From Alphaproteobacteria bacterium (GTDB lineage: Bacteria; Pseudomonadota; Alphaproteobacteria; JAAXGF01), in NCBI GenBank assembly GCA_963555825.3, contig CAUVXB020000001.1, positions 896,001 through 960,000 on the forward strand: a stretch of DNA of 64,000 bases, in the 5' to 3' direction. Below, in pieces: positions 38,682 to 49,222 of this stretch. The notes beneath the pieces were generated by a model. The model did no database searches and was not told the DNA's origin. It saw nothing but the letters and a program-made list of their open reading frames with translations. The position numbers and the translations under genes were made by a program. The stretch's first letter is position 1. Each line of letters starts with the position of its first letter.

Positions 38682-38904
38682 GAAGAAGTCGAAGGCGCTC
38701 TCGGCATCCTTCCTGGTTTCGGCCATCCAGATGTCTTGCAGGCGCCCCTTGGCTTTCTTTTGCGGGGATCTGCTTCCCCAGGAGCGCCGCCAAGGCTTCC
38801 CCGCAAAAGGCTAGCGCGGCAGGATCGCCGACGTGAAGCGGATGGCGCCGTCCCCCCGGTCCCGCACACGGGGTTGGCGCACGCTCACCGGGCCGATCCC
38901 GGTC
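38682..38904 (-). other. Patchwork of IS256 fragments identical to parts of 48209-48911
   Basis: 82-, 28- and 93-bp exact colinear matches. Confidence 0.85.
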
Positions 38905-38950
38905 GGAAGCGGACGCTGTGCGCCGACCTCGCCGACGTCTGCTGCTGACC

Positions 38951-39107
38951 CAGCCTGTGTGAAAACGCCGGCAAATCCCACTAACAGGAGAGTGTTCGGT
39001 CAATTCTTCGAAGGTGTCCTCTGATAAGATATTGATTTTGTTGAGTTTAGAAATTCGAGAATTCAGAGAAAATCGTGCCGATAGCGCTCGGGGGCGGTTT
39101 TTACACA
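38951..39107. mobile_element. IS1182-type MITE whose right TIR is split by the IS110 element (remainder GCCTG at 40627-40631)
   Basis: Left CAGCCTGTGTGAAAAC; reconstructed right GTTTTTACACA|GCCTG; GACC repeated outside both ends. Confidence 0.7.
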
Positions 39108-39199
39108 TGGCGTAACTCGGGGATCGGGCACTGCTCTCCTTAATGTAGCAACGACCGGCATGGGCCGGGCGAGCACACTGAAAGAGCAGGAGAGCAGCT

Positions 39200-40265
39200 A
39201 TGGAACTGTATGTTGGAATGGATGTATCGCTCAAGGAGACCTCGATACGCCGCCTTCATTTCAACGCCGTACACAAGATTCTGCGTGGTCGATGACAACG
39301 GCGAGATCGTGTCCGAGGGCGTGGTGATCTCGGAGCCGGCGGCAATCGCGGCGTATATCAGGACAACGGCGCCGCACGCAAAGCGCATCGGTCTGGAGAC
39401 CGGTCCGACGACGACCTGGCTGTGGCATGAGCTCAGGGCGCTCGGCTTGCCGGTGATCTGCATCGATGCGCGTCATGCCAAGGCGGCGCTGTCGATGCAG
39501 ATCAACAAGAGCGACCGGAACGATGCCGCCGGGATCGCGCGGATCATGCAGTGCGGTTGGTACAAGGAGGTCCAAGTCAAGAGCGTGGCGTGCCACGAGA
39601 TACGGGCCGTCCTGAACAGCCGGGCCCAGTTGGTCAAGATCAAGCGTGATCTCGAGAACCAGATCCGTGGCTTGCTCAAGAACCTCGGCCTCGTCATCGG
39701 CAAGGCGGGCGGCAATGTCTTCCGTCGCCGGGTCGAAGAGCTGCTTGGCGGGCAGGGTCTTTTGTCGGAGGCCGTTCGGCCCCTTCTGGAAGTCCGCGAG
39801 AAGGTCGGCCGAGAGATCGCCGCGCTCTATCGCAAGCTGCTGGGCCTGGCGCGGAACGACGAGGACAGCAGACGTTCCATGACGGTTCCAGGCATCGGGC
39901 CGATCACCGCCTTGGCCTTCCACTCGGCGATCGACGAGCCGAGCCGCTTCCGACGTTCCCGGAGTGTCGGCGCGTACATCGGGCTGACGCCGCGCCGCCA
40001 TGCTTCCGGCGAGGTCGATTGGACGGGGCGGATCTCCAAATGCGGCGATCGAATGCTCAGGACCTACCTCTTCGAGGCGGCCGGCGTGCTGCTCACCCGG
40101 GTGCCGCGATGGTGCGCGCTCAAGGCCTGGGGTCACAGGTTGTGGAAACGCATCGGCTTCAAGAAGGCCAAGATCGCCGTGGCACGGAAGCTGGCGGTCA
40201 TCCTCCATCGCATGTGGCGTGATGGAACGGACTTCATCTGGTCAACCAAGGAGGCGGCCGCATAG
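39200..40265 (+). CDS. IS110 DEDD transposase/bridge recombinase, frameshifted by a 34-bp insert at 39247-39280
   Basis: MELYVGMDVSLKETSI|CVVD, IGLETG, KSDRNDA, PGIGPITA, HASGE, AVARKLA. Confidence 0.9.
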
Positions 40266-40500
40266 GGAAACAACGTCCAAGCATTCCGCGAGAGCGGAAC
40301 CGATGTCCCTGTCGGGACGGCGGCGTCGGCGAGATCGATCCAGGCTTTGCGATGCCTCACCGAGGCAAGCGCGCTTCACACATTGATCCGCCAACGTCCT
40401 CCAACGCCATCATGCGGAGGGCCGAGCCCCTACCGCGGAGAGAACAGTGAACCCGGCAGGTACGTCACGGAGAGCTTGACAACCAACCCCCGAGTTAGAG
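40266..40500 (+). ncRNA. Putative bridge/seek RNA of IS1111 #1 (boundaries approximate)
   Basis: Four 7-8-nt segments match the target flanks and the element ends (see findings). Confidence 0.72.
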
Positions 40501-40624
40501 AACATTGATCCGCCAACGTCCTCCAACGCCATCATGCGGAGGGCCGAGCCCCTACCGCGGAGAGAACAGTGAACCCGGCAGGTACGTCACGGAGAGCTTG
40601 ACAACCAACCCCCGAGTTAGAGAA
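40381..40624 (+). repeat. Exact 122-bp tandem duplication of the IS1111 donor-loop region and right end
   Basis: 40381-40502 = 40503-40624. Confidence 0.95.
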
Positions 40625-40748
40625 CAGCCTGGACCCTATGCGGACATAAGACGTTCTGGGACCGCGTGCCTAATGTCGCCGCCATGACGGCGATTGATCC
40701 CGTAGCATCCCTGTCGCCCGACAGGACGGGCGTGTGCTGCGCGGGTCG

Positions 40749-40855
40749 AAGTGCGGACCACAGTCTTTCGTGACAGCTCGGGACCGAATACGCGGTCGGA
40801 TGCCCATTCCGCTGTCATTGTTGGCGGTTGTGAGAAGCCATCTGGGGAATTCCGG
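40749..40855 (+). repeat. 107-bp segment homologous to 49786-49892 (inverted); probable IS1380-type 3' end remnant
   Basis: Shared TCGGATGCCCATTC..GAGAAGCCATCTGG.GAAT.CCGG; terminus resembles TATGGGGAATGTCGG at 1465-1479. Confidence 0.6.
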
Positions 40856-40928
40856 TTAAGACAGTGGCCTTCTCAACGACCGGCGTTCAAGATAGTACAA
40901 ACCCAATCGAATTGTGGCCACCCGTGTC

Positions 40929-47847: not shown

Positions 47848-49222
47848 GAGCTATTGTCAAAAGTTGTGTATGGGCTGATCATGCGGCGGCGCGATCCTGG
47901 CGTTCTCCATCTACGAATTTGACGCCGCGAATGATCTCGGCGAGATGGTTCGATCCATCGAGTTTTCTCCATTTTCTCTGAGCGCACTGGCATAGTTTGA
48001 AGACCATGGCCATCGCCGTCTTGCGCGACAGGCAGCCCTTGGTCCGGTAGGTGCGCAGACGAACCGTGGCGAACGTGCTCTCGATGGGGTTGGTCGTGCG
48101 TACATGCTTCCAGTGCTCGGCGGGGAAGTCGTAGAACGTCAGCAGGACGTCGCGGTCCTTGGCCAGGCAGGCCGCGGCCTTGTCGTACTTCGGCCCGTAG
48201 GCTTCCAGGAAGAAGTCGAAGGCGCTCTCGGCATCCTTCCTGGTTTCGGCCATCCAGATGTCTTGCAGGCGCCCCTTGGCTTTCTTTTGCAGACCCTTGG
48301 GCAGCTTGTTCAAGACGTTGCCCGTCTTGTGAACCCAGCAGCGTTGCTCGCGGGCGCCTGGGTAGACTTGGCGGAGCGCCTTCCAGAAGCCGAGCGCGCC
48401 GTCGCCGAGCGCCAGTTGCGGACCCATTTCAAGGCCGCGCCGCTTGAGATCGAGCAGAACTTCGAGCCAGGACTGCTCACTTTCGCGATAGCCGTCGGCG
48501 ATGGCGATCAGTTCCTTCTGTCCCTTGTCCGTGGCCCCGACGATCACCAGGATGCACTGCTTCTCTTCCTCCATGCGGGCGCTGAAATAGATGCCGTCCA
48601 CCCAGAAATAGACGTAGCGCTTGGCCGTGAGGTCGCGCCGTTGCCAGCGCTCCGCCTCAACCCCCCAGACCTCTTTCAGCCGGGTGATCGTGGAGGCCGA
48701 AAGCCCCGGCGCGGAGCTCCCCAGGAGCGCCGCCAAGGCTTCCCCGAAGTCGCCGGTGGAAATGCCCTTCAGATACAGCCATGGCAAAAGGTCTTCCAGG
48801 CTCTTGGCGCGGCGCAGATAGCGCGGCAGGATCGCCGACGTGAAGCGGATGGCGCCGTCCCCCCGGTCCCGCACACGGGGTTGGCGCACGCTCACCGGGC
48901 CGATCCCGGTCTGGATGAAGCGTTCCGGCAGATATCCATTGCGGACAACCCGGCGGCGGCCGGCGGCGTCAACAAGCGCCGCATGGCTACCCAAAAACAC
49001 GGAGACCTCGGCCTCAACGGCTTGGGCCAACAACTCGCGAGCTCCAGCTTGTAGGACTTCCGTCAACGGATCTTTCTGAAAATCAGATGGGTTTTGAAAA
49101 GCAACAACGGTATTCTCTTTCATGGCGTATCCTTCCTTGGCTTAGCTCAAGTGGTGACATCAACAATCACCAGGATACGCCGCCTTCATTTCAACGCCGT
49201 ACACAAGATTCGGTTATAGCTC
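47848..49222 (-). mobile_element. IS256-family element with 9-bp target duplication
   Basis: GAGCTAT and ATAGCTC ends; TTGCCAAGC at 47839-47847 and 49223-49231. Confidence 0.95.
47879..49123 (-). CDS. IS256 (mutator-type) transposase
   Basis: VRNGYLPER, LYLKGISTGD, WVDG, GDGALGFW, QRCWVHK, RTTNPIES. Confidence 0.95.
   Translation of the reverse strand: MKENTVVAFQNPSDFQKDPLTEVLQAGARELLAQAVEAEVSVFLGSHAALVDAAGRRRVVRNGYLPERFIQTGIGPVSVRQPRVRDRGDGAIRFTSAILPRYLRRAKSLEDLLPWLYLKGISTGDFGEALAALLGSSAPGLSASTITRLKEVWGVEAERWQRRDLTAKRYVYFWVDGIYFSARMEEEKQCILVIVGATDKGQKELIAIADGYRESEQSWLEVLLDLKRRGLEMGPQLALGDGALGFWKALRQVYPGAREQRCWVHKTGNVLNKLPKGLQKKAKGRLQDIWMAETRKDAESAFDFFLEAYGPKYDKAAACLAKDRDVLLTFYDFPAEHWKHVRTTNPIESTFATVRLRTYRTKGCLSRKTAMAMVFKLCQCAQRKWRKLDGSNHLAEIIRGVKFVDGERQDRAAA

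Follow-up and report, generated by a model that had tools for sequence, protein, structure and literature searches.

The closest described systems are IS621 and the other bridge-RNA elements of the IS110 family, in which a recombinase with DEDD and Tnp domains is accompanied by a non-coding RNA bearing a target and a donor loop; the same holds for the element described below (PMC11208160, PMC13626964). The left target guide (LTG) of IS621 repeats the top strand of the left target and the right target guide (RTG) is complementary to the right target, all sites share a core dinucleotide, and off-target sites mostly keep this core (102/117; PMC11208160). The excision complex is described as binding its substrates across both loops (PMC13626964), and the hallmarks of the IS1111 group are given as subterminal inverted repeats and a right non-coding end longer than the left (PMC11208160). 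A further report describes exchange of the top strand only, as well as a top-strand reaction in which the right-end junction (LD-RT) is passed directly to a new right target (10.1101/2025.10.25.684509). In ISPpu9 a 3' module beside the recombinase gene (MITEPpu9/ssr9) can be duplicated and is found in tandem, alternative circles are formed, and other AG dinucleotides serve as the core once the ends are mutated (PMC12288879). A recent preprint describes tandem non-coding units beside IS110 recombinase genes (n = 468) that keep LD-only matches, and its authors propose LD-initiated, half-matched reactions that are resolved in place; in its text, term searches found neither IS1111, nor a core dinucleotide at the inner boundary, nor a guide-coding partner (10.64898/2026.08.14.744561). 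A search of the full-text literature, within the text that it returned, found this general phenomenon and found neither guide-coding DNA as the partner site nor a core rule at the inner boundary.

The window (the whole 64,000-nucleotide stretch of DNA analysed here) contains an element, IS-1, at 39107..40625 on the + strand, which is the strand of every feature below unless stated otherwise. The right non-coding end of IS-1 holds a 122-bp duplication. The single intact form of the element is 1363 bp, to which the window copy (W) adds this duplication and a 34-bp insertion. The recombinase gene (39201..40265) encodes an N-terminal, RuvC-like DEDD domain (DEDD_Tnp_IS110; PF01548 at 2.8e-13) and a C-terminal Transposase_20 domain (PF02371 at 1.9e-22). 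In W the gene is broken by the insertion, and the 343-amino acid intact recombinase of three other copies (A, B and E) matches NF033542, "IS110 family RNA-guided transposase", with 252 bits against a cut-off of 140. The non-coding ends are 238 nt on the right and about 94 nt on the left (39107-39200), and the subterminal inverted repeats are of 10 bp (TAACTCGGGG, at 39113..39122 on the left, and CCCCGAGTTA), within the 7-17 bp used here to define the IS1111 group. IS-1 is a bridge-RNA insertion sequence of the IS110 family, IS1111 group.

The left flank of W (39000..39106) is a MITE-like sequence that recurs elsewhere in the genome, and its terminal inverted repeat is the insertion target. The left target ...GGTTTTTAC extends up to 39104 and is followed by the core AC (39105-39106); the right target AGCCTGGACCC... 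(40626..40640) is the remainder of the MITE terminal repeat. All six copies of IS-1 in the genome sit in ...TTTT(T/C)AC-AC | AG(C/T)CT... sites, with the same core on both sides and no target duplication. About 68 target-like sites are present with up to 4 mismatches to the query GTTTTTACACAGNCTGGRYCM / GTTTTTACACAGCCTGGACCC, and similar sites are unoccupied. IS-1 differs from IS621 in several respects: its bridge RNA is encoded in the right end, its subterminal inverted repeat is of 10 bp, its core is AC and its target is the terminal repeat of other mobile elements; the event recorded in W is also a duplication in place, and neither an insertion nor an excision (PMC11208160). Other IS1111-group elements insert into the terminal repeats of mobile elements and share the subterminal inverted repeats of IS-1, the family of the target and the host being different. 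The genome as a whole is rich in insertion sequences, with at least five IS110-family lineages whose target repeats are the ends of other mobile elements. To our knowledge no duplications have been described in such terminal-repeat-targeting elements of the IS1111 group.

The 34-bp insertion (39248..39281) shifts the frame of the gene, and its sequence recurs exactly near one end of an IS256-like element. Together with the 4 bases that precede it (GATA) it forms a 38-bp stretch found 11 nt from one end of the IS256-like element (Pfam Transposase_mut), which is present in the genome in 39 other exact copies. The appearance of the insertion suggests a templated repair patch, not a product of transposition, and one IS256-like copy in the window (47879-49222, minus strand, with a 414-amino acid Mutator-family transposase) is the likely template.

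The right non-coding ends of 78 related loci, fetched through their recombinases (67-90% protein identity), were aligned and consist of a conserved scaffold with two variable segments. In a consensus structure made with RNAalifold from 30 distinct relatives the variable segments are the two sides of a stem-closed internal loop, and 6 pairs are changed on both sides. This target-binding loop lies at 40328..40392, its closing stem (40328-40338 / 40383-40392) surrounding the internal loop. The 5' side of the loop is the reverse complement of the right flank and the 3' side resembles the left flank plus core: the RTG-coding segment TCCAGGCTT (40339..40347) is the reverse complement of the right flank AGCCTGGA, and the LTG-coding segment (40373..40381), GCTTCAC followed by the core AC at 40380-40381, is the site of the inner breakpoint of the duplication. 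Among 26 distinct guide pairs the LTG matched its flank at 4.88 of 7 positions, compared to 3.22 after shuffling, and the RTG matched at 5.85 of 8, compared to 3.79; in both cases 0/2000 shuffles reached the observed value. On the strength of the structure and of this guide-flank covariation, 40373-40381 encodes the LTG, and the breakpoint does lie in guide-coding DNA, as a preliminary description of the locus had held.

The donor guides of IS-1 were read directly from the sequence. The right-donor-guide coding segment ACGCCAT (40404..40410, second copy 40526-40532) is the reverse complement of the left end ATGGCGT and is conserved in the relatives, while the left-donor-guide coding segment GGAGAGA-AC (40437..40445, second copy 40559-40567) mimics the right end TTAGAGA-AC and is near-invariant, with three rows of the alignment varying at one position or carrying a gap. 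An Rfam scan of 38800-40900 gave no match with E up to 1.

The duplication consists of two tandem copies of 122 nt that are 100% identical (40380-40501 / 40502-40623), and the ACA after them (40624-40626) is the same as the beginning of the unit; a perfect tandem repeat of this length cannot be due to chance. When set in the register of the AC core, a rotation of 40380-40501, unit 1 is 40382..40503 and comprises the 3' strand of the closing stem, the donor-binding loop, the right end and the core; unit 2 is 40504..40625 and ends in the outer right end, with the subterminal repeat at 40610-40619, TTAGAGA at 40617-40623 and the core AC at 40624-40625. The unit therefore spans the whole donor loop and right end, and the preliminary description was correct in its 122-bp repeat and in its two donor loops and two right ends. 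Its account of the new junction also agrees with the sequence: at 40495..40511 the right end TTAGAGA and the core AC are followed by ATTGATCC, the bases after the LTG-coding segment, so that the junction reads GAGTTAGAGAAC|ATTGATCC, the inner site being GCGCTTCAC-AC|ATTGATCC and the outer end GAGTTAGAGA-AC|AGCCTGGACC. The 17-mer across the junction occurs once in the genome, and among 401 genomes of the class it was found in this one alone.

For comparison with the IS110 preprint, tandem units were taken to be adjacent copies on the same strand, at least 95% identical, at least 50 bp long and at least two in number; in W there are two copies of 122 bp at 100% identity. Each ends with the right end and keeps the left-donor match, but not a right-donor match. 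In this, and in lying beside the recombinase gene, they resemble the units of the IS110 preprint, as given in its text; they differ in having the donor loop inside the unit, in the core rule at the inner sites and in the nested arrays described below (10.64898/2026.08.14.744561). W is a clear IS1111-group example of this recently described kind of event. The likeness to the ssr9 module is more limited: that module is flanked by boxes like both ends of its element, whereas the left boundary of the IS-1 unit is unlike the left end (4/10 positions match; PMC12288879). The unit does not qualify as a hitch-hiking MITE of the ssr9 type, and this genome contains no solo module; the unit start occurs 11 times, always inside elements or their duplications, one occurrence being the decayed 3' remnant of a related element (locus F). 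This remnant and a second one, G (L007), are decayed 3' ends of related elements and offered no usable junction.

Comparison with other genomes and with public contigs touches on a further explanation, that the repeat is an artefact of assembly. The region is repeated six times in the genome, and the public contigs on it do not bridge the junction; none of the listed Logan contigs from 4 public runs crosses 40501/40502, by which the duplication is neither confirmed nor denied. However, four copies of IS-1 have four different unit lengths, each unit being 100% identical to its partner, and comparable structures were found in L054, an unrelated long-read genome bin, and in the metagenome contig L118, so that an artefact is hardly credible. 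In 60 related genomes no highly identical IS-1 was present, which left no orthologous site for comparison, and a plasmid collection gave one distant match of 74%.

The genome (two contigs) holds six full copies of IS-1, and in 4/6 the 3' end is tandemly duplicated, with a unit of 122 bp in W, of 23 bp in A, of 630 bp in B, where it extends into the gene, and of 203 bp in E, where it is present three times. Every one of these units ends at ...GAGTTAGAGAAC. The inner sites are CTTCAC-AC|ATTG in W, GCTTG-AC|AACC in A, GCAG-AC|GTTC in B and GCGGA-AC|CGAT in E, and the AC is the sole feature common to them. A, B and E have an intact recombinase gene; copies C and D (L003, C2:3486800-3488800; L004, C2:2016500-2018500) share a 2-bp frameshift and are the only copies without a 3' duplication. 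Duplications are thus present in 3/3 intact copies and in W, compared to 0/2 of the frameshifted copies (4/4 and 0/2 among the six copies). Of the 64 inner AC sites of IS-1, 15 lie no more than 210 nt from the right end, and 3/4 of the duplication events fall within this distance.

When each of the 78 related loci was aligned to itself, one (L054) proved to be duplicated, with a 142-bp unit at 100% identity that again ends at the right end. Its inner site, CTCCA-AC|GGGC, is located in the inner hairpin of the target loop and precedes the guide core by 21 nt. All five duplications of the family (W, A, B, E and L054) are therefore joined at AC, and W alone at a guide core; 3/5 of the inner sites have just the 2-nt core in common with the right end. 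The base after the AC is not A in B, E and L054, and the crossover dinucleotide is consequently AC, and not CA as had been proposed.

A scan of metagenome contigs, which could detect only a right end joined to an LTG core and for which there is no denominator, gave at least 116 stretches (80 tabulated), with two related elements, L118 and L165. L118 (521-731) contains 1.7 tandem "donor loop plus right end" modules that are joined exactly as in W, in a lineage 80% identical; upstream there is neither a recombinase gene nor a target loop, the right flank is target-like, and L118 is possibly an orphan module. In L165 the right end is followed by 14 nt of the W-type continuation and then by unrelated DNA. 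The identical junction in these two unrelated contigs hints at recurrence. The first unit of L118 and remnant G are truncated within a few bases of each other, near the right-donor-guide DNA, and this was taken as a coincidence.

Some further joints were observed. In three related elements (L013, L036 and L062) the right end and AC are joined to DNA that mismatches the element's own right target guide, the left flank being a match; either captured DNA or a rearrangement next to the element may account for this. In L009 an additional AC separates the right end from its target. One contig of the public run X15 joins MITE-like left-target DNA into the guide-coding CACACA (window 40377), which would fit excision of the element from a duplicated copy leaving a solo module, and contigs of X15 and X16 have foreign DNA joined before ACGTCACGG (window 40462 or 40584). 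The X15 and X16 joints are absent from this genome, each comes from a single contig, and they are leads only.

A second lineage in the same genome, IS-2, is 1362 bp long, with the core TG, subterminal repeats GTGGACGGC / GCCGTCCAC and a recombinase about 31% identical to that of IS-1. There are five copies (L233-L237; C2:523460-527314, C2:2096029-2099883, C2:1401951-1405805, C1:2232619-2236473 and C1:168130-171984), all with an intact gene, and 4/5 have arrays anchored at the right end. In array b the units measure 296, 138 and about 24 bp. Array c combines a single 872-bp unit with three of 66 bp, and array e consists of two 134-bp and two 94-bp units. Array d is an older, scrambled one. Tandem Repeats Finder was run on L234. 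In b, c and e the units are nested and their length drops along the array. One IS-2 array has more than 10 extra right ends, with decayed tiny units at its far end; the imperfect tiny units that end array b look like the result of polymerase slippage. All seven mapped inner sites of IS-2 are preceded by TG, and in 4/7 the TG is all that they share with the right end. Of the TG sites up to 150 nt from the right end, 5/7 are used. Three other IS110-family lineages in the genome, with about 12, 7 and 6 copies, have no repeats within 900 bp of the gene, and duplication of the right end is therefore not general behaviour.

The rule common to both elements combines the right end, the element's own core dinucleotide and closeness to that end. 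Among 12 distinct inner sites found without bias (5 from the IS-1 family, 7 from IS-2), 12/12 carry the core dinucleotide of their own element. A fixed right boundary together with an element-specific core in two lineages points to the element's own recombinase, and argues against plain slippage and against an assembly artefact. We consider it probable, with modest confidence, that the repeat in W is a right-end-anchored (LD-anchored) tandem duplication of the 3' module, initiated by the recombinase of the element via a nearby core site. The recombinase would act at the right-end junction (LD-AC-RT), which the bridge RNA would recognise on both sides, and the right end would be joined at the core dinucleotide to an AC a short distance upstream, most simply on the sister copy; resolution in place would then leave the stretch between the two ACs doubled. 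A right end and a core dinucleotide would be the only requirements, with nearby sites favoured, and in W the upstream partner would be the AC that closes the LTG-coding DNA. We infer the catalysis of the joint by the recombinase, the sister duplex as its partner and any help from the guides. Support comes from the presence of duplications in the copies with an intact gene, and from published work: the alternative AG dinucleotides of ISPpu9 (PMC12288879), the core kept at IS621 off-target sites (PMC11208160), the transfer of LD-RT (10.1101/2025.10.25.684509) and the LD-only units at IS110 loci (10.64898/2026.08.14.744561). Units of 23-26 bp (copy A and the distal part of IS-2 array b) speak against this explanation, being impossible by looping or by a double-stranded circle, and the 3'-truncated copies of IS-1 that are expected from sister exchange were not found in the genome. 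Re-insertion of a mini-circle was considered as the sole route and was ruled out, since units of 23-26 bp cannot be double-stranded circles.

Replication slippage on the ACA microhomology, independent of the machinery of the element, had been raised in the preliminary description as a caveat. A microhomology of 3 nt is indeed present, and the 23-bp duplication of copy A lies between two similar stretches, ACAACC and ACAGCC. However, slippage should place the right boundaries at random, and every duplication in the two lineages ends exactly at the right end and uses the element's own core, AC or TG. Slippage is thus disfavoured to the point of being very improbable, and for W an origin linked to the recombinase is far more likely.

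The main rival of the LD-initiated joint retains the recombinase but not the recombination. Here the enzyme would nick the top strand at the core of the right end, and the free 3' end ...GAGAAC would re-prime at an AC a little way upstream, in the course of repair or of a fork restart, so that the stretch would be copied a second time. Such re-priming accounts for the fixed right boundary, the preference for nearby sites and the very short units, as well as for the untidy, imperfect micro-units that close IS-2 array b, and one report describes chemistry on the top strand only (10.1101/2025.10.25.684509). Yet a perfect template is present on the sister, so that priming from 2 nt should be rare, and microhomology should favour longer matches, whereas 4/7 of the IS-2 sites and 3/5 of the IS-1-family sites match the 2-nt core alone. 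On this evidence nicking and re-priming is unlikely, and the LD-initiated joint remains the preferred reading.

The preliminary description had proposed instead that the whole element was excised as a circle and inserted into its own LTG-coding DNA, and that homologous recombination between the resulting repeats of 1.27 kb collapsed the tandem to the 122-bp duplication. The geometry of this route fits exactly. Furthermore, the LTG-coding DNA is the first of the 63 AC sites in its likeness to the left target (9/9, by construction), the junction of the W type is also seen in the metagenome elements L118 and L165, and in IS-2 the tentative LTG core also serves as an inner site, four times in array b. 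On the other side, neither an LTG-AC-left-end junction nor an uncollapsed tandem of the whole element, as this route would produce, was found in the assembly, where 6/6 left ends follow normal target DNA. The route needs two steps where one suffices, it leaves the 23-bp and 24-bp units unexplained, and the inner sites of A, B and E are unlike the target. The poor match of the other half-site, which had been conceded at the outset, also holds, at 2/10 against the right target. Circle insertion and collapse is therefore distinctly unlikely.

The question of whether the guide-coding DNA had any influence on the choice of site can be separated from that of the circle. A link between the duplication and the recombinase, which was one part of the original proposal, stands; mimicry of the target by the guide as a requirement does not, only 3/12 inner sites being at guide-coding cores (W, and IS-2 sites 1794 and 1866 on tentative guide assignments). 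By flank matching, IS-2 site 1794 is tentatively the LTG core and site 1866 the left-donor-guide core, the best LTG-like window from 5 flanks scoring 5.6/9 in a tie with another window. Since nearly all nearby TG sites are used in IS-2, its hits on guide cores say little. In IS-1 the chance of at least one hit on the LTG core is about 0.19, for the three short-range events of this genome and the 15 AC sites that lie within 210 nt of the right end. Among the 63 AC sites, the inner sites of A, B and E rank 24, 6 and 24 in left-target likeness and 8, 40 and 51 in right-target likeness; they show no enriched likeness to target or donor half-sites, and a direction by the guides is therefore rejected as a general rule.

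In W itself, the pairing of the right-end junction with the LTG-coding site would match 3/4 of the half-sites of an excision synapse (LD, RT and, via guide identity, LT). It is possible that the LTG-core match raised the odds of this site being used without being required, although we lean against it. As for self-targeting by the guide, it is plausible in W as at most a contributing factor, neither required nor demonstrated. A wider proposal, that the LTG-coding DNA is a built-in half-site standing in for the left junction in an excision-like synapse with the right end, so that a "donor loop plus right end" module would be doubled, shed and amplified time and again in IS1111-type elements, is put forward tentatively and we hold it to be doubtful.

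Bridge recombinases are under development as programmable genome editors, and natural records of their side reactions are therefore relevant to specificity. Across two elements, the genome described here provides 12 distinct right-end-anchored joints, all of which obey the core of their own element. They suggest an ability of the right (left-donor) end to recombine with sites sharing little beyond the core, mostly close by. If guide-coding DNA were a preferred partner, every bridge-RNA expression cassette would carry an off-target half-site for its own guide. Duplications of this kind would be a route for varying the RNA genes, leaving orphan modules behind; if the reading of the LTG-coding DNA as a half-site is true, it would represent a natural liability to self-targeting and would give rise to orphan right-end modules and to variant bridge RNAs.
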